The notes under the pieces were generated by a model. It ran no database searches and was not told the DNA's origin. It was given only the letters and a program-made list of their open reading frames with translations. From positions 1 to 47,865 of the forward strand of contig CAYPUL010000001.1 of the NCBI GenBank assembly GCA_964413975.1: DNA of 47,865 nt. The letters are read 5' to 3'. A program made the translations under genes and the position numbers. Below are positions 9,479 to 42,198 of the stretch, piece after piece (position 1 is the stretch's first letter; every line of letters starts with the position of its first letter). This stretch comes from Candidatus Woesearchaeota archaeon (GTDB lineage Archaea; Nanobdellota; Nanobdellia; Pacearchaeales; GW2011-AR1).

Positions 9479-9510
9479 CGTGTGAATAGCAATTCTATTA
9501 CATCCGAAGT

Positions 9511-9519
9511 TATTTAAAA
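9511..9519 (+). promoter_or_regulatory. TATA-like box for the tRNA-Gly/tRNA-Pro pair
   Basis: TATTTAAAA, 22-30 nt upstream of tRNA-Gly position 1. Confidence 0.45.
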
Positions 9520-9540
9520 CTGACGATCATTCGTGTTTTG

Positions 9541-9611
9541 GCGCTGATGATCTAACGGTATGATGTCACCTTCCCAAGGTGATCGCCCGGGTTCAACTCC
9601 CGGTCAGCGCA
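9541..9611 (+). tRNA. tRNA-Gly (anticodon CCC)
   Basis: Acceptor GCGCTGA/TCAGCGC, anticodon arm TCACC-TTCCCAA-GGTGA, T arm CCGGG-TTCAACT-CCCGG, discriminator A. No CCA. Confidence 0.88.
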
Positions 9612-9616
9612 TGCAT

Positions 9617-9690
9617 GGGGCTGTGGGGTAGTTTAGTTAACCTTCAAGCTTCGGGGGTTTGCGACCCGGGTGCGAATCCCGGCAGCCCCA
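9617..9690 (+). tRNA. tRNA-Pro (anticodon CGG)
   Basis: Acceptor GGGGCTG/CAGCCCC, D arm GGGT-AGTTTAGTTA-ACCT, anticodon arm CAAGC-TTCGGGG-GTTTG, T arm CCGGG-TGCGAAT-CCCGG, discriminator A. Starts 5 nt after tRNA-Gly. Confidence 0.85.
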
Positions 9691-9740
9691 TTTAGGTTCG
9701 CGGTACGACAGTTTATAAATATCTAATTCAATACTATCTA

Positions 9741-10346
9741 ATGTCACTAAAAGATTTAATAAAAAAATTCTGGAACTACCTTAAAGAAGACAGCTGGCAT
9801 TCTTGGCTTGTCTCGCTCATTCTTATTCTCATCTTTATACGTTTTGTCTTTTTCCCGACACTTTCTTTTATTACGGCAAGTCCTTTACCGCTTGTTGTCG
9901 TGGAATCCTGCTCTATGTATCATGAATCAGATCTTAAAGCGTGGTGGACAAAGAACGCTGCCTGGTACAAAACGAACGACATTTCTGAGGGGGAGTTTAT
10001 TACCTTTCCTTTACGGAACGGTTTTACGAAGGGGGATATTATTGCGGTATGGGGAAGATCACCGTATAAGGTTGGGGACGTTATCGTCTTTACTGCAAAT
10101 CCTGACGCAAAAGCACGACATCCGATCATTCATCGGATTATTACTAGAGATCCGATTGCGACAAAGGGGGATAACAACGCCCAGCAACTCACACGTACTA
10201 ATAACAATCAGAATATTGATGAGACAAACATTTCTGAGGAAAGGATTATGGGGAAAGCGGTCTTTAGAATACCTCTACTCGGCTGGCTAAAACTGATATT
10301 CTTCGAACCATTTCGTGAGGATGCTCAACGCGGATTCTGTACTTAG
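9741..10346 (+). CDS. Signal peptidase I, archaeal/Sec11 type (S26B)
   Basis: N-terminal TM, catalytic Ser box (VVVESCSMYH), GDIIAV/GDVIVF beta-strands, and the His box HPIIHRII followed by TKGDNN. TTTATAAATA at 9712-9721. Confidence 0.85.
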   Translation: MSLKDLIKKFWNYLKEDSWHSWLVSLILILIFIRFVFFPTLSFITASPLPLVVVESCSMYHESDLKAWWTKNAAWYKTNDISEGEFITFPLRNGFTKGDIIAVWGRSPYKVGDVIVFTANPDAKARHPIIHRIITRDPIATKGDNNAQQLTRTNNNQNIDETNISEERIMGKAVFRIPLLGWLKLIFFEPFREDAQRGFCT

Positions 10347-10414
10347 AGAGTACTACTTTCGGAGTATTCCAAAAGTATAAATAAGCGCTTGCTATGTTAT
10401 TTTCTTAGAAGAAC

Positions 10415-10720
10415 ATGGAATTTTGTGAAAAATGCGGTGGTATGCTCATTGTAAAAAATGAAAAAGCGGTATGTGCGCGGTGTGGTCATCGATCGCAAAA
10501 AAAACTGAAAATAAAAGCATCGGAAAAAATTGGGAAGGCAGAAACTATTGCTGTTATCGAGGAGGGAGAAAATATCTATCCTATTATTGAGATGAGATGT
10601 CCTGTCTGTAAAAACAAGAATTGTTATTTCTGGACGCGACAAACCCGTGCTGCAGACGAATCTGAAACAAAATTCTATAAGTGTACTAAATGTGGTCATA
10701 CTTGGCGGGTTTATCGTTGA
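10415..10720 (+). CDS. tfs: Transcription factor S / RNA polymerase subunit M family
   Basis: N-terminal ribbon CEKCG...CARCG. C-terminal TFIIS-type ribbon CPVC...TRQTRAADESETKFYKCTKCGHTW with the acidic DE hairpin. Confidence 0.9.
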   Translation: MEFCEKCGGMLIVKNEKAVCARCGHRSQKKLKIKASEKIGKAETIAVIEEGENIYPIIEMRCPVCKNKNCYFWTRQTRAADESETKFYKCTKCGHTWRVYR

Positions 10721-10734
10721 CTTTATTCATTAGA

Positions 10735-11514
10735 TCAATCTAGGTATATTATTTCGTATAGCATTTGTGCTGCTTTTTCCGCACTATTCTTTGGCATACC
10801 ATAACCTTTATGTAAATCTCTAGCCATCTTTCCGACTATTTTTTTCATCCTATTTTCATCCAGTTTTTCTTTATCATTTTTTTCTGGTTTGATTTCATTA
10901 AGTGAACTAAATCCCTTACTGACTACAGAATCCAAGTCTCCTCTCCACCTGTCTGCATGAATATAAACTTGATCGGCCCCTATCTCTGGCTCACCTTCTG
11001 GAACAATTATAAGGCCCTCTAAACTATATGGTTTAAGGGGCAAAAGAGCTCTATCTGTAAGCCACTTGTAACCCATTTTAGAAGCTATTTTAACAGTGTT
11101 TATATCGAAATAATGATTGGGCGGAACATAAAGCTGTGGCTCGATACCTAATAATGCTTTAAGCTTTTTTCTGCCTTCATTCATAAATCTTTTTTGATCT
11201 TTTGAGGAAATTTGACCGAACCATAAACAGTAGTTCTCATGCCACGGGTCTATTCCTGGCCTTACTATCTTGTTATCTTTTTCTTCGAAGTGATAATCCT
11301 GACATTTAGTACATTTGTGATTAAGTCCTTGTTGTCCTAGTACATAACCTTCTCTCGAAAGTATTTCTTTTAATCTTGTTACTTGATAGTCTTTTATCCT
11401 AGTAATGTGACTGGGAGTGATAGAAACAGCGATAGGACCTTTTTTAGCTAGTTCTTCTACTCTTCTAAAACTTTCTTCATCAAACGTTTCGAGGTGAATA
11501 TTCATTACTATCAT
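10735..11514 (-). CDS. Hypothetical protein (possible polysaccharide-deacetylase/DUF2334-like fold)
   Basis: 259-aa ORF. The family guess is only weakly supported from sequence. Confidence 0.5.
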   Translation of the reverse strand: MIVMNIHLETFDEESFRRVEELAKKGPIAVSITPSHITRIKDYQVTRLKEILSREGYVLGQQGLNHKCTKCQDYHFEEKDNKIVRPGIDPWHENYCLWFGQISSKDQKRFMNEGRKKLKALLGIEPQLYVPPNHYFDINTVKIASKMGYKWLTDRALLPLKPYSLEGLIIVPEGEPEIGADQVYIHADRWRGDLDSVVSKGFSSLNEIKPEKNDKEKLDENRMKKIVGKMARDLHKGYGMPKNSAEKAAQMLYEIIYLD

Positions 11515-11615
11515 GTTGAGATTATCAACTATGAGAGCTTTAAAAGTATTTCTAGTTTCTCTTCTTTGTTGCAGAAACTTTTCTTTTGATCATTCGTCAA
11601 GAGACATAACATAGA

Positions 11616-11625
11616 TTTTTAAATA
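11616..11625 (+). promoter_or_regulatory. TATA-like box for tRNA-Lys
   Basis: TTTTTAAATA, 22-31 nt upstream of the tRNA start. Confidence 0.45.
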
Positions 11626-11646
11626 ATTCTCGATTTCTTCTTGAAA

Positions 11647-11720
11647 GGCTCCGTAGCTCAGTCTGGTAGAGCACTGGACTCTTAATCCAGGTGTCGGGGG
11701 TTCAAATCCCCTCGGGGCCA
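11647..11720 (+). tRNA. tRNA-Lys (anticodon CUU)
   Basis: GGCTCCG-TA-GCTC-AGTCTGGTA-GAGC-A-CTGGA-CTCTTAA-TCCAG-GTGTC-GGGGG-TTCAAAT-CCCCT-CGGGGCC-A. No CCA. Confidence 0.92.
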
Positions 11721-27426: not shown

Positions 27427-28296
27427 CTAATCAAATAGACTCATAAGCCACGAGATGAGGCGTCTAAAAAATCCCTCTTTCTTTTGTGGCAAACTACTCT
27501 CAGTTCTATTTATCGTGGTATTTGTAGCAGCATTTTGTGAAACATTCGTTGTAATAGAAAGGCTAGTATTCTCTTCTGTTCCATTTGTACTTTGATTTGA
27601 TGGTGTTACATTCTCGGTTGTATTCAATGCTAAGGTCTGATTTATTGTTTGATTGTTGCTTGTTGTTTGTTCACTGGTATTTATAGCAGCTTCCTTAATA
27701 TCTCCTGTCGCACACTTGTATACATTAACAAGAGCATTAGTAGCGGAAGCAGAACTTAACTCAATAACGAAAGACTTATTTCCAACAGTTATTTTTTCTG
27801 AAGGGTTCTGTTCTTCAGACAGAGAAAGCTTTTGCGCCCCGATAACTAACTTCACATTCGCTCCTTCAGGCCCTGATTCCTCTGCGTTATCAAGATATAC
27901 ATATAAACCCTTTATCGTAACAACCTCAGCCTCGTTAATAGTGCCTGATTCTCCTCCAATAGATATCTTCGCAAGAGAAGAAGACGCATTAAGCATGGAG
28001 ATAGTGTAACTACCACTAATCAGATTAAGTGTCTCAGATGAAGTTATATTCGTTAAGCTAACCCTACGACTATCAATAAGTAAATCAGCATAAAACTCTC
28101 TAAATCGACTTCCTTCCTGCGCCCGACTTACCCCAATGCCAATATCATTAATAATACGTGATGAACCAAGACTTACTTCTCCACCATCACTTGTTACAGC
28201 ACTCCCATCACTACACTCTGCTTTCGCTGAGATACGGCCAAGACCTAGAGTGAAAAATAGTATAAAAAACATAAACGTTATTATACTCTTTTTCAT
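27427..28296 (-). CDS. Secreted protein with Asn/Thr-rich, sequon-dense C-terminal region
   Basis: Signal peptide MKKSIITFMFFILFFTLGLGRISA. The C-terminal third carries many N-x-S/T sequons (NQT, NTT, NVT, NQS, NGT, NTS, NVS, NRT). TTTATAAT box about 25-30 nt upstream. Confidence 0.7.
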   Translation of the reverse strand: MKKSIITFMFFILFFTLGLGRISAKAECSDGSAVTSDGGEVSLGSSRIINDIGIGVSRAQEGSRFREFYADLLIDSRRVSLTNITSSETLNLISGSYTISMLNASSSLAKISIGGESGTINEAEVVTIKGLYVYLDNAEESGPEGANVKLVIGAQKLSLSEEQNPSEKITVGNKSFVIELSSASATNALVNVYKCATGDIKEAAINTSEQTTSNNQTINQTLALNTTENVTPSNQSTNGTEENTSLSITTNVSQNAATNTTINRTESSLPQKKEGFFRRLISWLMSLFD

Positions 28297-28557
28297 GTGA
28301 AGAGATAGTCATCCACAGATTATAAAGATTTTGGACATTTTGTAGCACTATACTAAGAAAGATTTATAGTCATTTTCTTATTACCTCCTTACAGATGGCG
28401 CGCTCATTTCATTCGCGCACCCATAGGAAAAAAATGCAAAAAGCAAACAATATGTTTTTAGCGAATGCGACCCTGAAAGGGGAAAAACTTATGATTTGGT
28501 TTTTGCATTTTTTTCGTACAAGAACCGAAGGTTCCAAATGCTCAAATAAGAAATAGG

Positions 28558-28607
28558 AAGTTTTGAAGGTTGAGGCATCGCAATTTATTGCGGTGTCTTC
28601 AAAACTT
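28558..28607 (+). promoter_or_regulatory. 50-nt compound hairpin/palindrome upstream of the HTH ORF
   Basis: Outer arms AAGTTTTGAAG (28558-28568) and CTTCAAAACTT (28597-28607). Inner arms CGCAAT (28579-28584) and ATTGCG (28587-28592). Ends 17 nt before ATG 28625. Confidence 0.5.
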
Positions 28608-28624
28608 AGTTAGGAATCACTACA

Positions 28625-28792
28625 ATGGTTGAGAAAAAGAGTATAAAGGTAGAATCTAAGAAAAAAATAACACATTACTCTGATGCAATAAAGGCGAGAG
28701 CTGTTCAGTTATATAGAGAAGGTAAAAGCGTCTTTGAAATTGTTGGAGAATTAAATGCACGATCGATTATTCACAATCCTCATAGCGGATAA
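28625..28792 (+). CDS. 55-aa HTH protein resembling the N-terminus of IS3-type OrfA transposases (possible IS remnant)
   Basis: Hand translation MVEKKSIKVESKKKITHYSDAIKARAVQLYREGKSVFEIVGELNARSIIHNPHSG*. The Y-S-x-x-x-K-x-x-AV-x-L...G-x-S pattern is typical of the transposase_8 HTH. Too short for the ORF track. Confidence 0.4.
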   Translation: MVEKKSIKVESKKKITHYSDAIKARAVQLYREGKSVFEIVGELNARSIIHNPHSG

Positions 28793-29081
28793 CTTTGGTG
28801 ATGGCGAGTATATGTGCATCGCTATTAAGAAAGGTCGAAGAGGTATGTGGAATTTTCTTATGTTGAAGATTAAAGAAGGTTGGTTTGTAAGAATAGAGAG
28901 AAGCACACGAAAGGTAGCTCGTAATCCTAACAAGGAAAAGAGGAAAGGACCATATCCTTACTTACAATCAGCACAACCAGTTTACAAAGCCCATAAGTTT
29001 GAAAGTTACGAAGTGAAGAAAGAAGAATTAAAAAATATTAATAATAATTTTACTGAAACTTATGAAGATTCAGTTTGGTAA
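28755..29081 (+). CDS. Hypothetical protein (108 aa)
   Basis: ORF overlapping the end of the HTH ORF in another frame. No motif recognised. Confidence 0.3.
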   Translation: MHDRLFTILIADNFGDGEYMCIAIKKGRRGMWNFLMLKIKEGWFVRIERSTRKVARNPNKEKRKGPYPYLQSAQPVYKAHKFESYEVKKEELKNINNNFTETYEDSVW

Positions 29082-29119
29082 CGGGATACAATTAAATAGA
29101 AGAATCAATTTTTATAATT

Positions 29120-29299
29120 ATGAAAGTTACAATCAATGTTCAGACTCTTAAAGGTAAAAAGTCTACACCAAAAGAGGTCGATAAAACTGTTGATCTATTG
29201 CAGAAGATTATGGAAAGAACAGAGAAACTGTTTAGAGGTTATAAGTGGAAAGAGTGTGTTTGTTCTTGTGATGGAACCAGTATTGTTTTGGAAAAGTAA
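29120..29299 (+). CDS. Hypothetical small protein (59 aa)
   Basis: Hand translation MKVTINVQTLKGKKSTPKEVDKTVDLLQKIMERTEKLFRGYKWKECVCSCDGTSIVLEK* looks more protein-like than the overlapping track ORF 29136-29318. Confidence 0.3.
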   Translation: MKVTINVQTLKGKKSTPKEVDKTVDLLQKIMERTEKLFRGYKWKECVCSCDGTSIVLEK

Positions 29300-29308
29300 A
29301 AATAGGAA

Positions 29309-29340
29309 AGATTTATAAACACATGGAAATTAATATTTCC
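29309..29340 (+). promoter_or_regulatory. TATA-like box plus 6-4-6 inverted repeat upstream of the MNT gene
   Basis: GATTTATAAAC (29309-29319), then GGAAAT-TAAT-ATTTCC (29325-29340) ending 2 nt before ATG 29343. Position fits an autoregulatory operator. Confidence 0.4.
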
Positions 29341-29342
29341 AA

Positions 29343-29873
29343 ATGGAAACAAAATTAACCATACTTAAGCCTTTTTTTGAAGACCCAAATAAACAATTTA
29401 GTATAAGACAGCTTTCTAGGATTCTAAAAATAAATCACACCACAATCAGACAACATCTAAATAAGCTGGTTAAAGAAGAAATTTTATCATTAAAAAAAGA
29501 AGGCGTATATTCTTTTTACAAGGTAATTTTATCAAAAAAGACGTTGAACTTAAAATTATATTACAATTTAGAAAAAATTAGAGCTTCTCGTATTATCGAA
29601 GATATGGAAAAAGCTTATGACCTTCCAATTATTGTTTTATTTGGAAGTTACTCTTCTGCCACAGATTCACTAGAAAGCGATATTGACCTTTGTATAATAT
29701 CCAACATAGAAAAGGTGTTTTCTGTAGGAAAATATGAAAAAATCTTGAATAGGAAGATAAGTCTGCATACATTCACCAAAACCTCTTTTGCTAAAGCAAA
29801 GAAATTAAATAAGGAATTAATTAACAATATCTGTAATGGAATCGTTTTATCTGGAGAATTGGAGGTTTTATGA
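29343..29873 (+). CDS. wHTH-fused minimal nucleotidyltransferase (MNT-type antitoxin-like)
   Basis: N-terminal winged helix (FSIRQLSRILKINHTTIRQHLNKLVKEEIL) and the NTase motif FGSYSSATDSLESDIDL (GS-x9/10-D-x-D). Confidence 0.8.
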   Translation: METKLTILKPFFEDPNKQFSIRQLSRILKINHTTIRQHLNKLVKEEILSLKKEGVYSFYKVILSKKTLNLKLYYNLEKIRASRIIEDMEKAYDLPIIVLFGSYSSATDSLESDIDLCIISNIEKVFSVGKYEKILNRKISLHTFTKTSFAKAKKLNKELINNICNGIVLSGELEVL

Positions 29874-30280
29874 ACTTTGAAAACAGTTTAAGAGAGGGAA
29901 AAGCAAGGAAAGTCGTTCCTAACAAAATTAGGGCTGCAAGTCTAATTAAGTCATCAACGCAGGCAATTGAGACTGCGAAGATTATACCTTTAAACGCTAG
30001 AAGTGCTAAAACTATTTTAAGAGAGTTTTATGAAGGACTCAGATAATATTGCGAAGCTATTGGTTATTCAAAAGGTTACAAGTTTTTGGATCATGAATCT
30101 ATCGGCTATTTTCTAAGAGATGTGCTAAAAGAGCAGTCAATCTATGGGAAATTTGATAGATACAGAAAATTGAGAAATGGTATCAACTATTACGGAGAAG
30201 ATATTGAAGTAGAAACTGTCAAAGAAGCAATTATAGAAATACCCAACATAATTAAAGAGCTAGAAAAATATAAGATTTGA
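29870..30280 (+). pseudogene. HEPN-domain partner of the MNT, interrupted by an in-frame TAA (30044-30046)
   Basis: ATG 29870 overlaps the MNT stop (ATGA). The frame reads 58 codons, then TAA, then stays open to 30280 in the same frame, covering the helical HEPN-like tail (...YRKLRNGINYYGEDIE...). Confidence 0.6.
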
Positions 30281-30455
30281 TTCTCTTATTTGCTTTGTTA
30301 AACAGCTCCAAATTAAGCCATAAACGCTCCTATTTTGCCGTATTTTTCCTTACTTAATGGAAAACTACTATGTAAGTAAAAAGGTGATAAAAAACGAACT
30401 TTTGTAGTATAGTGCTATTTTTAGAGCAACATATTATAAATATGTCGGACATTTA

Positions 30456-30758
30456 TTATTGTATTCTTTCTATTAGCTCTTCTTTTATTTTCTTCTTCTT
30501 TTCTTCCGAGATTGAGAACAAAGTTTTTTCAACCATCTTTTCGGATATTGTGAAAATGTAGTTTAATTTTATGATGCTATCTTTTATTGCCCCTTCTTTT
30601 TTGGTTAATAAAACGCCCTCCATCTTTAAATTTGAAGTGATCCCTAAAACTACTATATTGCCTTTTTCTTCAAATAGGACTAATGCAGGTCTTTTTTTAA
30701 TCTCAAAAGTATCCGTGTATTGTACCTGTGATAGAATTACTTCTCCAAACTTATGCAT
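30456..30758 (-). CDS. PemK/MazF-family toxin-like protein
   Basis: KFGEVILSQVQYTD...KKRPALVL...IVVLGITSN follows the GD-I-v...f...K-RP-alV...v-v-iTS pattern of MazF/PemK. ATG 30758 overlaps the upstream gene's end. Confidence 0.65.
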   Translation of the reverse strand: MHKFGEVILSQVQYTDTFEIKKRPALVLFEEKGNIVVLGITSNLKMEGVLLTKKEGAIKDSIIKLNYIFTISEKMVEKTLFSISEEKKKKIKEELIERIQ

Positions 30759-30978
30759 TTTCCCAGCTCTCATCCTCTTTATTATCCCAAAGTTCTTTCA
30801 TTTTCTCCTGTTGGATTTTATGGAGAAATTCGTCATATCGATTTCTTTCTTTCATTTTAATGAATATATTCGCCATTCTTTCCAGTAATTCGTTGTATGT
30901 CTGTCTGGGGTGCTCTCTTGCTTTCTTCAAGAGCACAATTACTCTTTTTTCTAATAAAATAGTTGATTGTTCTACCAT
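30751..30978 (-). CDS. Putative cognate antitoxin (75 aa from internal ATG; track ORF extends to 31023)
   Basis: Lies immediately upstream of, and overlaps, the MazF-like gene. Acidic C-terminus. TTTATATATT box about 25 nt upstream of ATG 30978. Confidence 0.45.
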   Translation of the reverse strand: MVEQSTILLEKRVIVLLKKAREHPRQTYNELLERMANIFIKMKERNRYDEFLHKIQQEKMKELWDNKEDESWENA

Positions 30979-31139
30979 ACATAATTGACTATGTATTAAT
31001 ATATAAAGCTTTCTTTTTTTCATTTTGTTACTCCAACGGAATTTCGTTTAAGGGGGGGTGCAGTTCAAAGTTCCCACCATATTAATTGTTAATAATCTGG
31101 GATATAAATAATTAAAAAACATATTTTGGTCTAAGTTCT

Positions 31140-32066
31140 ATGGATAGATTGTCAAATCTGGTGAAATCACAGCAGTTTTCTCGCGCCCTTTTAGAGGATT
31201 TATTCAAAGTTGCCGATTCTATTCGTTCTCAACCGAGCAAATATTCTAATTCTTTGCAGGGTAAGGTTATGTGTGCTCTTTTTTATGAACCTAGCACAAG
31301 AACAAGAATGAGTTTTGAGTCGGCTATGTTAAAACTAGGAGGCAAGGTAATTGGAACTGAGAATGCTGGAGAATTCTCTTCAGCGGCTAAGGGAGAAAGT
31401 TTAGAAGATACTGTTAGAGTAGTTTCCTCTTACTGCGATATCATTGTTCTAAGGCATAAAGATGAACATTCGTCAGAAAGGGTTGCTCCTCTCATTTCTA
31501 TACCTTTAATCAATGCTGGGGATGGAAGTGGGCAGCATCCGACACAAGCTTTATTAGATTTCTACACTATCTGGAAAGAATTTGGTAGAGTCGACGGATT
31601 AAAAATAGCTTTAGTGGGGGATCTTGCACATGGTAGAACAGTAAGATCTTTAGCGTATTTATGTACAAAGTTCAATAATATTAATCTAACATTAGTCTCA
31701 CCACCACACCTTAGGATTGGTGTTGATATAAAATCGCATTTAAGAGAACACAATCTTGAGTATAAAGAAGAGACAGACTTAATAAATATTCTCTCGCTTA
31801 CGGATGTTATTTACATTACAAGAATTCAAAAAGAAAGAATGAAGGCTTCTGATTACGATTTAGCAAGGGGAAGTTATATTATTAATGAAGATAGTCTTAA
31901 ATTAGTACGTGAGGATTCGAGAATTTTACATCCATTGCCACATGTTGAAGAAATTGATTTATTATTATCGACAGAAGCAGTGGATAAGAGAGTCGCTTAT
32001 TTTAGACAAGCAGAAAATGGCTTATATGCAAGAATGGCTTTGCTTCATCACCTTTTAAATAATTAA
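31140..32066 (+). CDS. pyrB: Aspartate carbamoyltransferase catalytic subunit
   Basis: FYEPSTRTRMSFESA, HPTQALLD and HPLP motifs. 308 aa. No pyrI or other pyr genes adjacent. Confidence 0.92.
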   Translation: MDRLSNLVKSQQFSRALLEDLFKVADSIRSQPSKYSNSLQGKVMCALFYEPSTRTRMSFESAMLKLGGKVIGTENAGEFSSAAKGESLEDTVRVVSSYCDIIVLRHKDEHSSERVAPLISIPLINAGDGSGQHPTQALLDFYTIWKEFGRVDGLKIALVGDLAHGRTVRSLAYLCTKFNNINLTLVSPPHLRIGVDIKSHLREHNLEYKEETDLINILSLTDVIYITRIQKERMKASDYDLARGSYIINEDSLKLVREDSRILHPLPHVEEIDLLLSTEAVDKRVAYFRQAENGLYARMALLHHLLNN

Positions 32067-32151
32067 AATATCACCTTCCGTCCTTTACTTTTTGAGATTT
32101 GAACACAGAAAAGGTGTTTATGATTTAAAGTCCTAAAAAAGTAATTTTCTA

Positions 32152-32168
32152 TTCGAAAATTGAACCAT
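32152..32168 (+). promoter_or_regulatory. 17-nt motif TTCGAAAATTGAACCAT directly upstream of the TATA box of the PepSY gene
   Basis: 16/17 identical to 32684-32700. Followed by the ATATATAAAA box, then the AAGGAGG SD (32214-32220) and ATG 32227. Confidence 0.5.
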
Positions 32169-32226
32169 GACATATATAAAATCTATTTATCTAGAAATAG
32201 TATGAGAAAATGTAAGGAGGTAAAAA

Positions 32227-32646
32227 ATGATAAAAACAAGCGATAAAATAATATTGGGAGTTCTTACTATCTTGTTGGTAGGAATGAGTGCTGTTTTTAT
32301 ATCTGCTGTTTCAAGTAGTGGACAAAAGAGAGCATCATTGAACGAACAACTTTCAGTAACGGACATAACTCCAGAAAAGACTAGTGCCACCTTAAAAAGC
32401 AATTTTGAAGAGGAAGACGATGAAGAAGATGTTCCAATAATAGGAACACCGCTTGAAAGAGCCAGTGCAGCTGCTCTCGCATACATTGGTAAAGGTCGCG
32501 TAACAGACTCTGAAATTGGAGATGAAGAAGGTTACTACGAGATTGAAATAACTTTAGACAACGGAAACGAAGTAGACGTACACTTGGATGAAAACTTCCG
32601 TGTGCTAAGTGCTGAATACGAAGACGAAGATGAAGAAGATGATTGA
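32227..32646 (+). CDS. PepSY-domain membrane-anchored protein with acidic tracts
   Basis: N-terminal TM. AAALAYIGKGRVTDSEIGDEEGYYEIEITLDNGNEVDVHLDENFRVL fits the PepSY pattern. Strong SD 6 nt upstream. Confidence 0.7.
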   Translation: MIKTSDKIILGVLTILLVGMSAVFISAVSSSGQKRASLNEQLSVTDITPEKTSATLKSNFEEEDDEEDVPIIGTPLERASAAALAYIGKGRVTDSEIGDEEGYYEIEITLDNGNEVDVHLDENFRVLSAEYEDEDEEDD

Positions 32647-32702
32647 ACTTTATGATTGAACTTTAATTTTTTTATTATTACATTTCGAAGATTGAACCAT
32701 TA
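32641..32702 (+). promoter_or_regulatory. Three further copies of the ATTGAAC core (two tandem GATTGAACTTTA plus TTCGAAGATTGAACCAT)
   Basis: Copies at 32641-32652, 32654-32665 and 32684-32700. The last abuts the CTTTTAAAAAC box upstream of ATG 32734. Confidence 0.5.
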
Positions 32703-32733
32703 CTTTTAAAAACCGAGACTAATCATTGATAAT

Positions 32734-33093
32734 ATGAAGAAAACAATGTTTGCCATTTCAGTCTTACTAATCTTATTTTCATCAATTCCCTTAACAATCT
32801 CCCAATCGGAAGACGGAAATTATTTAATAAAAGGCTTTGAATTGGAAAAGCTTGTTGCCTTGTTGAACGCCTGGATCTCAATTTTTCTTTTTGTGTTAGC
32901 TTTCTTAGCCTACAAAAGAGATGGCAGGAAAAGACTGCTTTATGTTAGTATAGCTTTTCTTTTATTTGCGATAAAAAGTTTTCTCATATCTTCGGAGCTA
33001 TTTTTCCCAGAAGTTGAATGGTTCGACCCACTCTCAACTCTGTTGGAATTAGGTGTATTGTTAAGTTTCTTTTATGGGGTGCTGAAGAAATGA
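32734..33093 (+). CDS. Small integral membrane protein (119 aa)
   Basis: Signal/TM plus three further hydrophobic spans. Followed 6 nt later by the regulator gene. Confidence 0.6.
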   Translation: MKKTMFAISVLLILFSSIPLTISQSEDGNYLIKGFELEKLVALLNAWISIFLFVLAFLAYKRDGRKRLLYVSIAFLLFAIKSFLISSELFFPEVEWFDPLSTLLELGVLLSFFYGVLKK

Positions 33094-33099
33094 ACTACG

Positions 33100-33630
33100 A
33101 TGATTGCAAAAAGCGAAAAAATACTCGAGCTTGAAACTAGAAAAAGAATATATGAGATTGTAAAAAAATATTCTGGTTGCCATTTTCGTGAATTTGAAAG
33201 AATAAGCAGAATTCCATATGGAACGTTGAAATACCATTTGAATTTTTTGATAAAGCACGATTTAATAATCTACAAAAAAGAAGACAACAGAGTAAGGTAT
33301 TTTCCAAAAGATTTTCAGACAGAAAATATAAAGCTGCTTAGTCTGTTAAGGCAGAAAGTAATCAGAAAAATAATTCTGTTTCTTGCAATAAACGAAAAAT
33401 CCGGTCATGAAGAAATTTCAAACTTTCTTGAGCTGTCTCCATCAACTGTTTCCTGGCATTTAAACAAGCTTGTCAGAGAAAATATAATGGTCTCTGAAAA
33501 AGAAGGAAGGAAAACAAAATACAAACTGGCTGTAGATAAAAATGAGATAATAAAAATCTTGGTTATTTACAAAGAAAGTTTTCTTGATTCATTTGTCAAC
33601 CGAGTTATTGAGATGTGGGATTTAAGTTAA
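33100..33630 (+). CDS. Transcriptional regulator with two ArsR-like winged-helix domains
   Basis: Two wHTH units: RKRIYEIVKKYSGCHFREFERISRIPYGTLKYHLNFLIKHDLI and IRKIILFLAINEKSGHEEISNFLELSPSTVSWHLNKLVRENIM. Confidence 0.75.
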   Translation: MIAKSEKILELETRKRIYEIVKKYSGCHFREFERISRIPYGTLKYHLNFLIKHDLIIYKKEDNRVRYFPKDFQTENIKLLSLLRQKVIRKIILFLAINEKSGHEEISNFLELSPSTVSWHLNKLVRENIMVSEKEGRKTKYKLAVDKNEIIKILVIYKESFLDSFVNRVIEMWDLS

Positions 33631-34080
33631 GATATATTTCTCGCAACCACAATTGTTGTAACATCCTAGTTTTTCTGTCAAAAATGGCAAGTAACGCTCC
33701 ACGAAACATATAGTTAAGTCCTACCTTAGACCTCATGTCTAGTTCATCATAAGATTATTAACTTGTGGTGAACCACCCCCACGAGATATTTAACCCTAGG
33801 TTAAGGTTCTCCCGCTAATTTTCTAATTTTTATCTACATGATCTATTCTATAAATTGCAGAGGCGATAAACTCCGGGCTAATTCTTAGGGGAATCTGCGC
33901 TGTACTTCCTTCTCCCATAAACTTGCTCTCATACATCGGACAATGCTTATTCATCAGCACAATAAGAACCATTTCTTTTTAAACATTTTTGCATTGTAGT
34001 ATACGGTTATTCTTGCATAAAACAATTTAAAAGAGTTTATTAAATAACTGATTCTATTAGGAAGGTAAGATAAATGTGAT

Positions 34081-34767
34081 ATGGTTAAAATAAAATTCTG
34101 GCATATTCTAATATTCTTAATTGTAGTCTTATCTATTTTATTGATTTTATTATTAATTCTAAATCCTGGCGATTTAAATCTAGGAAATCGTCTTGCTTAT
34201 CAATATGAGATATGTGACGATAAAGGTGCATGCAGAATGGTCCAGGTTGATAGAATTATACAACCAAGCAAGCAGACTTTTAATATTTGTAATGATAGAG
34301 GACTATGTGAAGATGTTCCTATCAACCGGTTATTGCTTAAAGAAGGGACAGATAAGAAATACTGTTCAAATGCGCCCTATCTTAAAACAGATTATGTTGA
34401 TAATTGGTGGAATGCAAATGGATTAATTGATGAATGTGAAATGCCTCCTAGATCTGATATGCAATTTACATTTAAACAGCATGACCAAAGCATCCTTAGC
34501 TATACTGGTACTATCCAGATTTCTCTAACTGCAATGAATTACGAGGATAATTATCTCGCACTTCAGATATTAACAGCCGAGGATAATGATGGCGATTATC
34601 TTCCAGATACATGGATTCATTGTGGTAATGTAGATGAAATAAAAGGAAAAGATATGAAGATAATTTATTGTGACGGGAATAATCTGAAATTTGTTAGATT
34701 GGTTAATCCTGAATGGAATCCGACAAGTATATTTATTGACAGGATTGAAGTTTTAAAAGTTGGTTAA
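34081..34767 (+). CDS. Membrane-anchored Cys-containing extracytoplasmic protein
   Basis: N-terminal TM. Duplicated motif YEICDDKGACRMVQVDRII / FNICNDRGLCEDVPINRLL. No family recognised. Confidence 0.6.
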   Translation: MVKIKFWHILIFLIVVLSILLILLLILNPGDLNLGNRLAYQYEICDDKGACRMVQVDRIIQPSKQTFNICNDRGLCEDVPINRLLLKEGTDKKYCSNAPYLKTDYVDNWWNANGLIDECEMPPRSDMQFTFKQHDQSILSYTGTIQISLTAMNYEDNYLALQILTAEDNDGDYLPDTWIHCGNVDEIKGKDMKIIYCDGNNLKFVRLVNPEWNPTSIFIDRIEVLKVG

Positions 34768-34805
34768 AGATGTTATAATTGCTGATAGGCACAGAGATGA
34801 GAAGA

Positions 34806-35057
34806 TTATTCATATTGGAGAATAACCGTATACGTGGATTCTTCGTTCGCATTTTCTTCGGCTTCTTCGCCCCAATCGCTCGATTCTTCTTGTGCTGCTT
34901 CACGGCAGCGCCAGCACAATGATTGGTCGCTAGTGTGTTGATACTCTTGCTCGTGTTCTAACTCTTGTAGATCGTACCAAAGGTCAAACACCGCATTACA
35001 TTGTTTGCATCGGACAGGTAATAGGCAGGTAGTTTGTTTCATGTTTTCTAGAAACAT
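34806..35057 (-). CDS. Small zinc-ribbon protein with acidic tail
   Basis: CKQC...CWRC pairs and a Glu-rich C-terminus. Composition differs from its neighbours. Confidence 0.45.
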   Translation of the reverse strand: MFLENMKQTTCLLPVRCKQCNAVFDLWYDLQELEHEQEYQHTSDQSLCWRCREAAQEESSDWGEEAEENANEESTYTVILQYE

Positions 35058-35269
35058 TTTGGATATAAAAAGATATATAGAATCTCAATTACTACATTCG
35101 TTTTCAATAAATTTTATATAGTAATTACCTCAAAAGTTACAAATTCTTAGTGAAGATAAAACAGCAATATTTTTATACTGCGTTACTTCTAAGTACTTAC
35201 TTTACTGGTTCGAGTAATGTATACTTAATGTTATTTTCTTTATCACTCGGATTAAACCCTTCTTGTGCA

Positions 35270-35590
35270 TTAAGGATATATCCTACCACTATCGAATTCT
35301 AATTCAATAGGTCCTTCTTCTGGCTGTACTATCTGAGCTATTAATACTCCTCTTCCTCTTCCAAGAACAAAAAGCTCATCAAAAGTTGTATGATAATGAT
35401 TCCCGAGAACAAGTCTGCCTTGACTATCAACTCCTTTTTCTGGATTATGGCTCAAGTCGAATATATTTGAGGCTGCTACGTTTCTTCCATGAAGATACCC
35501 TGCAGGAAGGTCGCCAATAAATCGCCGTGAGTCGCTGTGCTGACCGACAAAATTCTGTCGTATGATTTGTTCTAATTCTAATGCTGTCAT
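35270..35590 (-). CDS. Cupin-like small protein (tentative)
   Basis: GNHYHTTFDELFVLGRGRGV resembles the cupin/WxcM-like core G-x-H-x-H...E-x-F-x-v-x-G. 106 aa. Confidence 0.45.
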   Translation of the reverse strand: MTALELEQIIRQNFVGQHSDSRRFIGDLPAGYLHGRNVAASNIFDLSHNPEKGVDSQGRLVLGNHYHTTFDELFVLGRGRGVLIAQIVQPEEGPIELEFDSGRIYP

Positions 35591-35660
35591 CTTCTTCGTT
35601 ATTTTGTTATACCAAGATCTTTATAAGCTTTTATGTTATAGAGATGGTGTACCATCATAA

Positions 35661-35672
35661 CTTTTAATAATC
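35661..35672 (+). promoter_or_regulatory. TATA-like box for gatE-like gene
   Basis: CTTTTAATAATC, 20-31 nt upstream of ATG 35692. Confidence 0.4.
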
Positions 35673-35691
35673 TCTATAGTTTCTTCTTTTT

Positions 35692-37146
35692 ATGGAACCA
35701 CAGGAGTATTATCAGCTCGGTCTGAAGGCCGGTCTTGAAATCCATCAGCAACTTGATACAGGAACAAAGCTTTTTTGTAACTGTCCCTCCTTCTTGAGAA
35801 ATGACCCTCCTGAGATAACAATAAAACGAAAACTCCATGCAGTCGCGGGCGAAACAGGCGAGGTTGATAGTTCGGTTGAGTACGAAGCATCACGTAATCG
35901 CGAATTTTATTATCAAGGCTATCACGATAGTACTTGTCTTATTGAACTTGATGAGGAACCTCCAAGATTAATCAGTGAAACAGCTTTGAACGAAGCACTT
36001 ACGATAGCTCTACTTCTTAAGTGTGAGATCTATCAGGTTACACAAATTATGCGCAAGACAGTTATCGATGGCTCAAACACTTCTGGCTTCCAGCGTACTG
36101 TTCTCATTGCTCGTAATGGTATTCTTAAAACATCTAAGGGCGATGTAGGAATAGAAACTATCGCTTTGGAAGAAGACGCAGCTCGCATTATAGAAAAGGA
36201 TGATAAAAAATCTATTTATCGTCTCGATCGTCTTGGTATTCCTCTTGTAGAGATTACAACAACTCCAGCCCTTAGAGATCCCGAACATATTAAGGAAACA
36301 GCCCTTAAATTTGGAGAGATCCTTCGTGCTTGTAAGGTAAGACGTGGTATTGGTACTATTAGGCAGGATATTAATGTTAGCGTTAGGGGTCATGATAAGG
36401 TTGAGATTAAAGGTTTTCAGGATCCAGCTCTTATGGTTAAGACGATAGAATTAGAGGTCCAACGCCAGGTAGAAGATCTAAAAAACAACAAAAAAACAGG
36501 TGAGGTGCGAAACGCTCTTCCCGATTGTACGACTGAATTCCTTAGGCCTCTTCCTGGTAGAGCACGCATGTATCCTGAAACAGATCTACCGCTCTTAAGG
36601 ATACCTAGAGAGAAAATAAACACTATTAAAAAACAACTTCCAAAACTGAAACACGAGATACAATCGGAACTAAAAAAGAAAGGCCTTTCGGATGAACTTA
36701 TCTCTCTTGTTCTCGAGGGAAATCTCGATGAGTTTGAGACACTTCTTCAGGTTTATGGAAAAAATTCGAATCTTGTTGCAAAAATGATTACTCTCTGGCG
36801 CTCAGAACTTGCGACTAGACTTAAAAAACCGCTCGCTGAGATAAAAGAGATCCTTTCGGAAAGAATCTTGGAACAAATTCTTGAGGCCTTAAGAGAAAAC
36901 AGGATTGGTGAGTCAGATATCCGTTTAGTTATGGAGAAAGTTGCGATAGGTACCCCATTTGAAACTGTCCTCGGAACAGAAAAAATATCTGCTGATGAGC
37001 TTGAGGGGCATATTCGGAAGATAATCAAGGAGAATCCAGGTCTAAAACCAAACGCTTATATGGGGCTTATCATGCAACAACTCAAAGGTAAACTTAACCC
37101 TGGACAAGCTATGCAGATCGTACAAAAAATCCTTGCCACAGAATGA
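35692..37146 (+). CDS. gatE: Glu-tRNA(Gln) amidotransferase subunit E-type protein lacking the insertion domain
   Basis: GatE-diagnostic blocks: GLEIHQQLDTGTKLFCNCPS, CLIELDEEPP, RKTVIDGSNTSGFQRT, YRLDRLGIPLVEITT, RGIGTIRQDINVS, LRPLPGRARMYPETD, plus a YqeY-like tail. Only 484 aa. Confidence 0.85.
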   Translation: MEPQEYYQLGLKAGLEIHQQLDTGTKLFCNCPSFLRNDPPEITIKRKLHAVAGETGEVDSSVEYEASRNREFYYQGYHDSTCLIELDEEPPRLISETALNEALTIALLLKCEIYQVTQIMRKTVIDGSNTSGFQRTVLIARNGILKTSKGDVGIETIALEEDAARIIEKDDKKSIYRLDRLGIPLVEITTTPALRDPEHIKETALKFGEILRACKVRRGIGTIRQDINVSVRGHDKVEIKGFQDPALMVKTIELEVQRQVEDLKNNKKTGEVRNALPDCTTEFLRPLPGRARMYPETDLPLLRIPREKINTIKKQLPKLKHEIQSELKKKGLSDELISLVLEGNLDEFETLLQVYGKNSNLVAKMITLWRSELATRLKKPLAEIKEILSERILEQILEALRENRIGESDIRLVMEKVAIGTPFETVLGTEKISADELEGHIRKIIKENPGLKPNAYMGLIMQQLKGKLNPGQAMQIVQKILATE

Positions 37147-37646
37147 AAGTAAAGAAACCAAGTTACCGACGTGTTATTCCTTTCGTTCTAATCTTTTTTA
37201 TTATTCTTAGTATAATACTGTTAATTACATCCATCAAAAAAACAATACAAACGCAATCATTGTCAACGCTCACAATTCGAACACCGACACAAACACACAC
37301 AATAAACATAGAAATAGTAGATTCACCGAGAAAACGTGCACAGGGACTTATGTATCGTACCTCGTTGGAGCAAAACACTGGCATGCTCTTTGTCTTTCCT
37401 CATGAACAACAGCAGACTTTCTGGATGAAAAATACACTTATCCCTCTTGATATTATCTTCATAAACAAAAACCTAGAAATCACTGAAATCGTAACTGCTA
37501 ACCCTTGTTATAAAGATCCTTGTACTCGTTACACATCTTCCTTCCCAGCACAATATGTTCTCGAACTTAATGCTGGTTTCTCTCAGCGTAACAATCTTTC
37601 TCAAGGTGATAGAATCTTCCTTGACATGCTGTGTTGTATGACTTGA
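37143..37646 (+). CDS. DUF192-family protein with N-terminal TM
   Basis: RAQGLMYRTSLEQNTGMLFVF...FWMKNTLIPLDIIF...YVLELNAGF matches the DUF192 pattern. ATGA overlap with gatE. Confidence 0.75.
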   Translation: MKVKKPSYRRVIPFVLIFFIILSIILLITSIKKTIQTQSLSTLTIRTPTQTHTINIEIVDSPRKRAQGLMYRTSLEQNTGMLFVFPHEQQQTFWMKNTLIPLDIIFINKNLEITEIVTANPCYKDPCTRYTSSFPAQYVLELNAGFSQRNNLSQGDRIFLDMLCCMT

Positions 37647-37715: not shown

Positions 37716-37982
37716 TCAATCATCGGCGCTGATCATATAAAGAGTGACCTCTTTGTTAAACTCTCGGATCTGTCGTATTGCTTCGATTCCATATATACCT
37801 TTTCCCATATCGTTATCGGTAAGGATTAAATCATAGGAGGCATGTTTAACTTTCTTAACTAGATCTTCTCCGGTACTCACAGTTTCGATAATCGCGTCTC
37901 GGTCAAAGAGAGACACCGTCTCAGCTAAAAAATATTTCATTTCTTCATAATCGTCAGCAATAATAATCCTTCTCTGAGGCAT
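37716..37982 (-). CDS. Short CheY-like receiver domain (88 aa, C-terminally truncated relative to canonical REC)
   Basis: IIIADD (acidic pocket), LILTDNDMG (phospho-acceptor Asp context) and MISAD (conserved Ser/Thr position). Ends before the conserved Lys. Confidence 0.6.
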   Translation of the reverse strand: MPQRRIIIADDYEEMKYFLAETVSLFDRDAIIETVSTGEDLVKKVKHASYDLILTDNDMGKGIYGIEAIRQIREFNKEVTLYMISADD

Positions 37983-38536: not shown

Positions 38537-39916
38537 ATGTTACGGACACATACTTGTAATGAGTTGAAGAAAAAAGATGCAGGTAAAAAAGCAACACTCT
38601 GTGGCTGGGTTGACACGGTTCGTGAACATGGAAAACTTTCATTCATAGATCTTCGAGACTGTTATGGTAAAACCCAGATTGTTGTTCGAGAAAAACACGA
38701 ACTAAGACCAGAATATGTTGTTCGAATAAAGGGAGATGTGAAAATACGTAAACCGGGTACAGAAAATAAAGACCTTGAGACAGGTGATATTGAACTTGTT
38801 GCTGAGAAAATAGAGATACTTGGAAAATCAAAAACTCCTCCATTTGAGATTCTCGATGAGAAGCCAGCTGGCGAGGAAGTTAGGATGCGATACCGCTTTC
38901 TTGATCTGCGTCGTCCTATCATGCAAAGAAATCTTGCCTTTCGAGCGCAGGTAGCATATGCGGTACGAGAATTCTTTTTGCAGAACGGTTTTATTGAGAT
39001 AGAAACACCGCTACTCGTAAAACCAACACCGGAGGGAGCGCGTGATTACCTTGTCCCGAGTAGAGTAAACCCTGGGAAATTTTATTCGCTTCCTCAATCT
39101 CCTCAGTTATATAAACAGATTCTTATGATTGCAGGTTTTGATCGATATTTTCAGATCGCGCGTTGTCTCCGTGATGAAGATCTACGCGCAGACAGGCAGC
39201 CAGAACACACACAAATAGATCTAGAGATGTCTTTTGTAGAGGTTGTGGACATAATTGAACTTGTCGAGTCACTCTACAAATATCTCTTCAAAAAACTCTT
39301 ACACATTGAACTGAAAAAATTTCCAAGAGTAACATATGAGGAAGCAATGAAGGTGTATAGGACAGATAAGCCAGATCTCAGAAAAAGTAGAACAGATAAA
39401 AAAGAGTTTGCTTTCTGCTGGGTATATGATTTCCCGCTCTTTTCCTATAACGAAGAAGAAAAACGATGGGAACCGGAACACCACATGTTTAGTGCTCCTA
39501 AAAAAGAACATCTTCATCTACTTGAAAAAGATCCTGCGAAGGTACAGGGTGATCTTTTTGACCTTGTTCTTAATGGTGTTGAAATCGGTTCTGGATCAAT
39601 TCGTATTAACAATCCAGAGCTTCAAGAACGGGTTATGCGGGTTATAGGTATGTCTAAGGAAGAGGCACATAAAAAATTTGGCTTTCTCCTCAATGCCTAC
39701 GAATATGGCGGTCCTGTCCATGGCGGTATGGGTCTTGGTCTTGATCGCCTTATCGCACTTATGCTTGGTTATTCTGACATTCGTGAAGTTATCGCCTTCC
39801 CTAGAAACAAGGCAGCGCAGAACCCAATGGACGAATCTCCTGCTGCTGTTTTACCGAAACAACTTAAAGAAGCTCATATTGCTCTTGATCTTCCAAAAAA
39901 ACAAAAGAGCAACTAA
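38537..39916 (+). CDS. aspS: Aspartate--tRNA ligase, bacterial type, without GAD insertion domain
   Basis: RTHTCNEL, RMRYRFLDLRR, FYSLPQSPQLYKQILMIAGFDRYFQIARCLRDEDLRADRQPEHTQIDLEMSF, DKPDLR, HHMFSAP and GMGLGLDRL align to bacterial AspRS. 459 aa. Confidence 0.9.
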   Translation: MLRTHTCNELKKKDAGKKATLCGWVDTVREHGKLSFIDLRDCYGKTQIVVREKHELRPEYVVRIKGDVKIRKPGTENKDLETGDIELVAEKIEILGKSKTPPFEILDEKPAGEEVRMRYRFLDLRRPIMQRNLAFRAQVAYAVREFFLQNGFIEIETPLLVKPTPEGARDYLVPSRVNPGKFYSLPQSPQLYKQILMIAGFDRYFQIARCLRDEDLRADRQPEHTQIDLEMSFVEVVDIIELVESLYKYLFKKLLHIELKKFPRVTYEEAMKVYRTDKPDLRKSRTDKKEFAFCWVYDFPLFSYNEEEKRWEPEHHMFSAPKKEHLHLLEKDPAKVQGDLFDLVLNGVEIGSGSIRINNPELQERVMRVIGMSKEEAHKKFGFLLNAYEYGGPVHGGMGLGLDRLIALMLGYSDIREVIAFPRNKAAQNPMDESPAAVLPKQLKEAHIALDLPKKQKSN

Positions 39917-39918: not shown

Positions 39919-40143
39919 ATGGACAAAAAAACAATCGAAGCAGACGCAAAACATTTACTTAAAAAATTTAGTCGGGCGTTACATACCATAAAAGAGAAGG
40001 AGCAGGAAATAAAAATAACGACTGATGGTATGAGAGAAGAGGGTCCCGGAGAAAAGGCGGATCCGGAATTCAAAAAGCTTATGTTTGCTAATGCTCCTAA
40101 AACGGACAATGGTTTTATTGTTGCAGAGAAGAGGAGATGGTAA
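39919..40143 (+). CDS. gatC: GatC-like amidotransferase subunit C (tentative)
   Basis: 74 aa, starting 2 nt after aspS. The C-terminal pattern MREEGPGE....LMFANAPKTDNGFIVAEK resembles GatC's LREDE...L.NAP...DG.F.VP. Confidence 0.55.
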   Translation: MDKKTIEADAKHLLKKFSRALHTIKEKEQEIKITTDGMREEGPGEKADPEFKKLMFANAPKTDNGFIVAEKRRW

Positions 40144-40151
40144 TCCAAATA

Positions 40152-40439
40152 ATGAATGGAGAAATAAGAGATATAAGAATAAAAGCTTCAAAACCAATGG
40201 GGGAGATAAAAAAAGGTGATAGGATAAGAATAGATTCTCTCTTTCTCGAGGTAGATTCTTACTCTGTCCTAATTGATCATGGTTCGACAAAAGAGATGGC
40301 AATTGAGCTCTTCGATCCTAAGACAGATAAGGACTACCAACTCCGCTACTTTTCAGATCAGGTTGAAACGAGCCTTGAGCTTTACGAACTCAATGAGATT
40401 ATTTACAACAAGCTAGATATTCATACCATTGAATGGTGA
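40152..40439 (+). CDS. Hypothetical protein (95 aa)
   Basis: ORF following gatC. The first ATG after the gatC stop is used (the track start 40137 overlaps gatC). Confidence 0.5.
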   Translation: MNGEIRDIRIKASKPMGEIKKGDRIRIDSLFLEVDSYSVLIDHGSTKEMAIELFDPKTDKDYQLRYFSDQVETSLELYELNEIIYNKLDIHTIEW

Positions 40440-40896: not shown

Positions 40897-42198
40897 ATGG
40901 ATTTCGAGCAGAAAGTAAAATCCTATCTGGAGAGAATAAAGAAAGGAGATAAGAAAATAAACGCTTTTCTCTATCTTAATGAGAACGTGCTTCGTGAAGC
41001 AAAGACTATTGACAAGAAACAAAAAAAAGGAAGGCTTTATCCGTATGTTATAGCGGTTAAGAGTAACATACATGTTCAGGGACTTCCTTGTACTTGTGCA
41101 TCAAAGACACTTGAGAACTATATTGCACCTTATGATGCAACAGTTATTGAAAGAATAAAAGCAGAAGATGGTCTGATTATTGGGATGACAAATATGGATG
41201 AATTTGCAGCAGGTTCGTCTGGTGAAAACTCTGCGTTTGGCCCAACGCAGAATCCTTCTGCTCCTGGCAAGATTCCAGGCGGTTCAAGCTCGGGTTCAGC
41301 AGCAGTTGTTGCAGCCTCATTTTCCGATGTTGCACTTGGTTCAGATACTGGCGGTTCAGTAAGGAATCCTGCGAGTCAGTGTGGTATTATTGGCTACAAA
41401 CCTTCATATGGACTTGTTTCGCGTTATGGTCTTATTGATTTATCAATGTCCCTAGATCAGATTGGCATCTTGGCAAAAAACCTTGTTGACATAACGCTCC
41501 TTCTCTCTGTTATTCAGGGTAAGGATAAGAGAGATACAACAACATTTGATGCGCTACCAATACAAGGAACAAACACGGACAACATAACGCTTGGTATTCT
41601 ATCGGTAAGAGGAACAAACAAGAAGATAGAGAATCATATAGCAGAAAAAATTGAATCTCTTACAAAAAAGCATAACTGGAAAACAAAAGATATAACAATA
41701 AAACACATTGATCTCGCGGTTCAAACATACTACCTTTTAGTCTATGCTGAGTTCTTCTCTGCAACTAGGAGATTTGACGGTAGACGTTACGGTAAAAAAA
41801 TCGAGGATGTTGCTGGTTCGGAAGTGCTCAGGAGAATCTTGGGAGGCAGCGAAACAACAAGAGCAGAATTTGAAGGCGCTTACTATGAAAAAGCACTTGC
41901 AGTAAAACAGATTATTAAGAAGGAATTCGAAAATATCTTTCAAAAGGTTGATTGCATAGCACTTCCTACTGTTCCTTTGCTCCCCTGGAAGGTCGGGGCA
42001 GGTAGTGTTATGAGCGCAGAAGAAATCTATGCTGCTGACGCCCTTACTATTCCTGTCAACCTTGCAGAAGCCTGCGCGATCTCTCTTCCTGCTGGAAAGG
42101 TCGATAACCTTCCTGTTGGCCTCCAACTCATCTGTGCAAGAACACATGACGTACAGTTACTCTCAATTGCAAGGAGAGTAGAGAAAACGCTATGGTAA
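40897..42198 (+). CDS. gatA: Glutamyl/aspartyl-tRNA amidotransferase subunit A (amidase signature family)
   Basis: IAVKSNIHVQGLPCTCASKTLENYIAPYDATV, NMDEFAAGSSGENSAFGPTQNP, GGSSSGSAAVVAA, GSDTGGSVRNPAS and LDQIG. 433 aa. Confidence 0.88.
   Translation: MDFEQKVKSYLERIKKGDKKINAFLYLNENVLREAKTIDKKQKKGRLYPYVIAVKSNIHVQGLPCTCASKTLENYIAPYDATVIERIKAEDGLIIGMTNMDEFAAGSSGENSAFGPTQNPSAPGKIPGGSSSGSAAVVAASFSDVALGSDTGGSVRNPASQCGIIGYKPSYGLVSRYGLIDLSMSLDQIGILAKNLVDITLLLSVIQGKDKRDTTTFDALPIQGTNTDNITLGILSVRGTNKKIENHIAEKIESLTKKHNWKTKDITIKHIDLAVQTYYLLVYAEFFSATRRFDGRRYGKKIEDVAGSEVLRRILGGSETTRAEFEGAYYEKALAVKQIIKKEFENIFQKVDCIALPTVPLLPWKVGAGSVMSAEEIYAADALTIPVNLAEACAISLPAGKVDNLPVGLQLICARTHDVQLLSIARRVEKTLW

Follow-up and report, generated by a model that had tools for sequence, protein, structure and literature searches.

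The locus raises the question of how a GatE subunit can lack the domain that is treated as specific to it, and with which partner such a protein works. In the window (the whole stretch of 47.9 kb that was analysed) the original prediction noticed an ORF whose 484-aa product carries the core of GatE, with only about 10 residues at the point where characterised GatE has an AspRS-like (GAD) insertion, and with gatC and gatA as neighbours and no gatD. Two readings were left: a minimal GatE acting with GatCA, or a GatDE with an altered mode of tRNA recognition. Our analysis indicates that the ORF very probably encodes GatE of an otherwise ordinary, GatDE-type Glu-tRNA(Gln) amidotransferase from the DPANN Pacearchaeota/Woesearchaeota group, in a natural variant that is devoid of the AspRS-like, GAD-fold insertion. 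The features of the locus are listed in Table 1.

Table 1. Features of the short gatE locus, with positions in the window.
Feature	Position	Strand	Evidence or remark
gatE, short form (484 aa), predicted kinase/transamidase subunit of GatDE	35692..37146	+	GatE equivalog cut-offs passed; PDB alignments; AF2 model
N-terminal part of catalytic cradle (residues 1-262)	35692..36477	+	Gapless alignment to 2d6f_C residues 3-259
Deletion junction, 10-residue linker DLKNNKKTGE (residues 262-271)	36475..36504	+	Replaces the canonical GatE insertion of ~126-180 aa
YqeY-like tail domain (residues 348-481)	36733..37134	+	PF02637 GatB_Yqey, 29.3 bits (cut-off 27)
DUF192-family ORF	37143..37646	+	4-nt overlap with gatE stop codon; weak NF002996 match
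aspS, bacterial-type AspRS without GAD domain (459 aa)	38537..39916	+	NF001750, 654 bits, two stretches
gatC-like small subunit (74 aa)	39919..40143	+	3 nt after aspS; TIGR01827 gatC_rel 51.0 (cut-off 52.1); NF000681 52.8 (cut-off 64)
Conserved 100-aa ORF between gatC and gatA	40137..40439	+	7-nt overlap with end of gatC
gatA, amidase-family glutaminase subunit of GatCAB (433 aa)	40897..42198	+	Pfam Amidase 388 bits; TIGR00132 475.4 (cut-off 481.1)

Sequence and fold of the short GatE

By all sequence criteria but the insertion domain, ORF 35692-37146 is a GatE. The GatE-specific core blocks claimed for its product are present (RKTVIDGSNTSGFQRT, YRLDRLGIPLVEITT and LRPLPGRARMYPETD), and direct reading found MRKTVIDGSNTSGFQRT in the place of the GatB block RKxYxYPDLPxGYQ, which had been noted as missing. 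Scoring against gatE and gatB models, as had been proposed, demonstrated that the protein passes the GatE cut-offs of NCBIfam, in two stretches each (NF003107, 473.7 bits, cut-off 456; TIGR00134, 418.2 bits, cut-off 319.55), and fails all GatB models, by ~170 bits (best NF004012, 164.5 against 338; TIGR00133, 153.5 against 314.8); real GatBs from related loci reach 423-437 bits on NF004012. The models thus do not place the protein inside GatB. A Pfam search matched GatB_N and GatB_Yqey, and the GAD domain (PF02938) was absent.

Alignment to solved GatE structures located the missing segment. Residues 6-262 of the short GatE, the cradle, correspond to residues 3-259 of Methanothermobacter thermautotrophicus GatE (2d6f_C, 619 aa) with more than 50% identity, and residues 269-481 correspond to 396-611, leaving out ~136 residues (~260-395 of 2d6f_C). 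The alignment to P. abyssi GatE (1zq1_C) has the same single gap, so the claimed loss of a ~130-aa GAD insertion is borne out against both structures, and the junction reads ELEVQRQVE-DLKNNKKTGE-VRNALPDCTTEF, as described. The Mg2+ ligands H18, E160 and E187 align with His15, Glu157 and Glu184, three residues shown to be indispensable for the M. thermautotrophicus enzyme (PMC2330236). Across 145 aligned GatE sequences E160 never varies and H18 and E187 hardly do, and 20 invariant core residues are kept in the short protein.

The DNA at the deletion junction contains no Ns and the reading frame is unbroken. Comparison with an 89%-identical relative (L003) gave a dN/dS of 0.056 for gatE, showing that the short gene is under purifying selection. 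The AF2 model has a mean pLDDT of 83.9, is confident through the junction and is helical in the region of the YqeY-like tail; a fold search with this model returned the GatE chains 1zq1_C and 2d6f as best matches, followed by GatB. Model and fold search only confirmed the family membership.

The short GatE resembles the canonical subunits (M. thermautotrophicus 2D6F and P. abyssi 1ZQ1) in its cradle, Mg2+ ligands, helical and YqeY-like domains and GatE motifs and, in relatives of the window, in having gatD as a neighbouring gene, and differs from them in the ~136-aa AspRS-like insertion. With GatB of GatCAB it shares the cradle, the helical domain, the YqeY-like tail (a tRNA D-loop-binding module common to GatB and GatE), the absence of an insertion and a length of ~450-490 aa, and the AF2 model matches GatB folds with TM-scores of 0.56-0.71. 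Unlike GatB, however, it remains far below the NF004012 cut-off and carries the MRKTVIDGSNTSGFQRT block, and related genomes contain a real gatB as a separate gene.

In the literature the AspRS-like insertion is treated as the feature specific to GatE. Public annotation calls the short-form proteins plain "GatE". We found no description of an insertion-less GatE in full-text searches of the literature on GatE, GatDE, GatCAB, DPANN, Pacearchaeota, the insertion domain and GAD, and no usable table of gat genes per lineage in the supplements of the DPANN genomics papers searched.

Partners and predicted reaction of the short GatE

The claim that the window holds no gatD was confirmed by tblastn with two Pacearchaeota GatD queries (best E = 0.75). 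No GatD- or GatB-like protein was detected by Pfam among ten other large ORFs of the window, which is also without gatB, and neither gene is found within 10 kb in L003. GatA and the GatC-like ORF lie beside aspS as described, and gatE lies 1.4 kb upstream of aspS-gatC-gatA. This arrangement, together with the domain layout shared with GatB, would suit a protein that acts as the B-like subunit of GatC-GatA-GatE, or that serves both GatD and GatCA. Loss of the insertion would then have removed a steric block to AspRS, so that gatB could be lost, in agreement with published modelling in which the insertion keeps GatDE off ND-AspRS (PMC2943598). We regard such a protein as highly improbable, given the gene content of the relatives.

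On two large contigs, L001 (575 kb, Pacearchaeota) and L002 (886 kb), the short gatE is preceded by gatD at a distance of 2-6 kb and followed by aspS, gatC, a small ORF and gatA. Relatives of the short GatE are encoded by at least 591 stretches when one genome per GTDB species is taken. Of the best 80 of these loci (L010-L089), 56 extend at least 4 kb beyond the short gatE on its upstream side, and 49 of these have gatD closely upstream. The evidence favours the second of the original readings, taken as a GatDE with altered handling of substrate or partner.

In 27 of the 80 loci the contig with the short gatE carries a second gene of the GatB/E family. For L043, L044, L068 and L075 this second gene is gatB (429-437 bits on NF004012, cut-off 338), and the short protein beside it passes both GatE cut-offs in three of the four; that of L044 clears TIGR00134 and falls slightly under NF003107 (454.3 against 456). 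A search with the GatB of L043 yielded seven clusters whose longest contig exactly equals in size a contig encoding a short GatE, these GatEs being 62-65% identical to the window protein. One of the seven was verified, JAUSIK010000008.1 (L092, GCA_030648155.1, 341 kb), which carries gatB, proS, gatD, short gatE, aspS, gatC and gatA inside 21 kb; its GatE is 64% identical to that of the window. The GatB of L005, used as a query, had matched no such contig and first suggested that gatB is absent from short-GatE contigs, an idea overturned by the L043 query and by the 80-locus survey.

The presence of gatB in these species loci and in GCA_030648155.1, the six further contig-size matches and the regular neighbourhood of gatD all count against an enzyme made of GatC, GatA and GatE. 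The gatE/aspS/gatC/gatA synteny is also found in long-GatE relatives, indicating that it is independent of the deletion, and asnS has been gained in loci without gatC and gatA, which likewise speaks against such an enzyme. The cluster of the long form P0121 (618 aa) contains gatB, gatD, archaeal ND-aspS, gatC and gatA, and the long-form locus L009 likewise has gatB and gatD. As the full complement of GatDE and GatCAB occurs alongside either form of GatE, replacement of GatB by the short GatE is unsupported, and the minimal GatE acting with GatCA, as first suggested, finds no support in the relatives, which encode a short GatE and a genuine GatB and have gatD as the usual neighbour.

What still speaks for a role with GatCA is that gatB is seldom adjacent in the subclade nearest to the window (GatE at least 60.5% identical), in only three of the 20 loci with enough flank. 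In the sublineage of the window gatB was not seen beside gatD and gatE, and a bacterial-type AspRS without GAD domain adjoins gatC and gatA. An insertion-less GatE might there approach AspRS-bound tRNA(Asn), one kinase subunit serving two amidotransferases, an idea to which we give very little weight.

For the ordinary GatDE that we favour, gatD and gatB are presumably located elsewhere in this genome, as judged from the relatives. The window and the vicinity of gatE in L003 being without gatD, the partnership with GatD in this genome rests on relatives. The original prediction had named a full-length gatE or gatB, plus gatD, elsewhere in the genome as evidence against it; gatB and gatD were found in relatives and not in this genome.

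With cradle, helical domain and YqeY-like tail all preserved, the short GatE is assigned the GatDE reaction by homology. At the level of sequence and fold, the protein would bind the GatD dimer and take its ammonia, phosphorylate Glu on tRNA(Gln) with ATP and amidate it to Gln. Recognition of the tRNA by GatDE is ascribed to the first base pair and the D-loop, and the YqeY-like tail touches the D-loop (PMC2330236); this tail and the catalytic core are retained in the short form. For M. thermautotrophicus GatDE, Rampias et al. (PMC2943598) proposed that the insertion forms a concave pocket for ND-GluRS, and the same proposal is cited there from Oshikane et al. The pocket would permit a tRNA-independent GluRS:GatDE complex with a KD of 40-100 nM, and the insertion would clash sterically with ND-AspRS (PMC2943598). 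This docking role derives from modelling and binding data on one methanogen enzyme. By analogy, the DPANN enzymes with a short GatE would be without the tRNA-independent GluRS:GatDE complex of methanogens. Glu-tRNA(Gln) may then be handed over in a tRNA-mediated, GatCAB-like manner or by diffusion, and exclusion of Asp-tRNA(Asn) would depend on tRNA features alone. Formation of Asn-tRNA(Asn) would fall to a GatCAB of its own, encoded by the gatC and gatA of the window together with a gatB that presumably lies at another place in the genome.

Spread of the short form and loss of the insertion

The survey of related genomes for the same deletion found the short form in all of the best 80 GTDB loci, from MAGs labelled Pacearchaeota, Woesearchaeota or Nanoarchaeota. 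The best 120 homolog clusters listed come from assemblies of NCBI, ENA, JGI and Logan, measure 473-517 aa without exception and, where they are named, are called GatE of Pacearchaeota or Nanoarchaeota. Among 1.84 billion cluster representatives, searched exhaustively, there were 3227 matches; the best 150, minus ten fragments and plus four sequences of the query clade, were aligned. The junction region comprises 12-18 residues in 31 short forms and 126-180 in 112 long forms, with two intermediates.

Short forms are on average 0.427 identical to each other, against 0.421 between short and long forms. A bootstrapped NJ tree mixes short with long GatE and contains three groupings that join short and long forms as sisters with 97-100% bootstrap (the query clade with P0121, P0193 with P0208, and P0217 with P0246). 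P0121, the closest long-form relative, is 57% identical to the window GatE outside the insertion. Parsimony required 17-23 state changes in each bootstrap replicate, the tree being star-like at depth and the exact number of loss events accordingly uncertain. Named members of other short clusters are Woesearchaeota, Norongarragalinales (which we take to be Micrarchaeota) and one MAG labelled Methanobacteriota. The interleaving and the well-supported sister groupings indicate repeated loss: as read from the sequences, the insertion is lost many times, mostly in small-genome archaea. This fits the reductive evolution of a dispensable accessory domain.

The opposite course, in which GatE of this type never gained the insertion and the short form is an ancestral intermediate between GatB and canonical GatE, appears very unlikely to us. 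A deep position in the archaeal tree is sometimes given to DPANN archaea, and the short forms are alike in a G-K-K-V-like motif of the linker and in the length of this linker, which hardly varies (16 residues in most of them over the region compared). A constant linker, however, is to be expected where the inserted domain begins and ends at neighbouring points of the fold. Short forms are about as identical to long forms as to each other, several are nested beside long forms at 97-100%, with the 17-23 changes by parsimony, and P0121, the sister of the query clade, is a long form. A single origin of the short forms, considered for the shared linker motif, was rejected by the identity statistics and the bootstrapped tree.

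That the ORF is an assembly deletion, a pseudogene or a mis-called GatB, as might be thought from a length 136 residues below every characterised GatE and from GatA and GatC scores slightly under the curated cut-offs, has practically no chance of being right and, together with the reading as a decaying gene, is already refuted: the same architecture recurs in independent assemblies from four sources (NCBI, ENA, JGI and Logan) and in every one of the 80 GTDB loci, the gene combines its low dN/dS with invariant catalytic residues, GatE models are passed where GatB models are missed by a wide margin, and the AF2 model is confident over the junction. A search of the window and of 92 fetched loci for an insertion domain encoded by a gene of its own found none, which speaks against a split gene within this set.

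The insertion has been treated as the element that makes GatDE a dedicated archaeal Glu-amidotransferase, by docking ND-GluRS and excluding ND-AspRS (PMC2943598). The many DPANN species without it, the several independent losses and the retention of GatD and a separate GatCAB show that the insertion is dispensable, and that GatDE can persist as an essential enzyme in its absence. The short GatEs are ready-made natural deletion mutants for testing the role proposed for the insertion. GatE (TIGR00134) is also among the GTDB-derived archaeal marker sets evaluated for phylogeny (PMC7414124), hence the short forms bear on marker alignment; they score barely above one curated GatE cut-off, and L044 slightly below it.

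One 123-kb contig carrying archaeal gatD, short gatE, aspS, gatC and gatA (L025, VGJV01000002.1) belongs to a MAG labelled 'Candidatus Liptonbacteria bacterium' (CPR). Its tblastn scores equal those of L028 (VGKP01000013.1), from a Pacearchaeota MAG of the same study, and the contig is probably mis-binned or mislabelled.

Genes around the short gatE

The DUF192-family ORF also follows gatE in L003 and L004, where it is annotated PF02643. It is probably co-transcribed with gatE and not part of the amidotransferase. Further downstream, on the same strand, aspS, gatC, the 100-aa ORF, a glyoxalase-like ORF, gatA and the gene for an MBL-fold hydrolase are tightly packed, with gaps of 3 nt or with overlaps.

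The AspRS of the window aligns with T. thermophilus AspRS (1efw) from residues 1-285 (1-297 in 1efw) and from 287-448 (414-575). The GAD insertion of bacterial-type AspRS is of the same fold family as the domain missing from GatE, and the AspRS of the window has lost it at the corresponding point of insertion. On the sequence evidence both GAD-fold insertions of the amide aminoacyl-tRNA machinery are absent in this organism, in different proteins and by separate events. Of 60 short-gatE loci with a typed AspRS, 21 encode the bacterial type without GAD and the other 39 the archaeal ND type. According to a published proposal, the GAD domain renders the bacterial Asn-transamidosome less stable (PMC3367201), which makes a GAD-less AspRS beside gatC and gatA worth attention.

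An ORF in the gatC position is present in related loci as well. The 100-aa ORF that follows has no Pfam or NCBIfam match and is found by tblastn at the same position in most related loci, with 49-79% identity; L005 and L092 have an ORF of 160-162 aa in this slot. The 100-aa product may be an accessory protein, so far unrecognised, that belongs to the archaeal GatCAB cluster.

In two loci (L061:15083-17739 and L024:11510-14211) the gene directly after a bacterial-type aspS without GAD is a genuine asnS (477 and 476 bits on NF003037, cut-off 414), and no gatC or gatA follows; 13 loci of this kind extend at least 8 kb on the downstream side. In L027, L032, L034, L038, L053 and L082 the asnS position is occupied by an untyped second class-II aaRS. 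In the asnS loci the direct Asn pathway seems to have taken the place of the indirect one, and the window, with bacterial-type aspS, gatC and gatA, is a mixed state.

Four tRNA genes lie at 8493-11720 (Ile-GAT, Gly-CCC, Pro-CGG and Lys-CTT), and neither tRNA(Gln) nor tRNA(Asn) is among the tRNA genes of the window. The G+C content is 0.33-0.35 at 28001-36000, against ~0.39-0.41 elsewhere, and a gene for an aspartate/ornithine carbamoyltransferase lies inside this low-G+C region (31140-32066). From a conserved 289-aa ORF to gatE the distance is ~7.4 kb in the window and ~2.7 kb, with different small ORFs, in L003, indicating that the region just upstream of gatE is variable; it may be an insertion. 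The spacer between gatE-DUF192 and aspS varies as well, holding an 88-aa ORF in the window (37716-37982, minus strand) and a MazE/PIN toxin-antitoxin pair in L003 and L004 (L003:12008-12597), and in L092 VapB/PIN and ParE modules are found around gatE.
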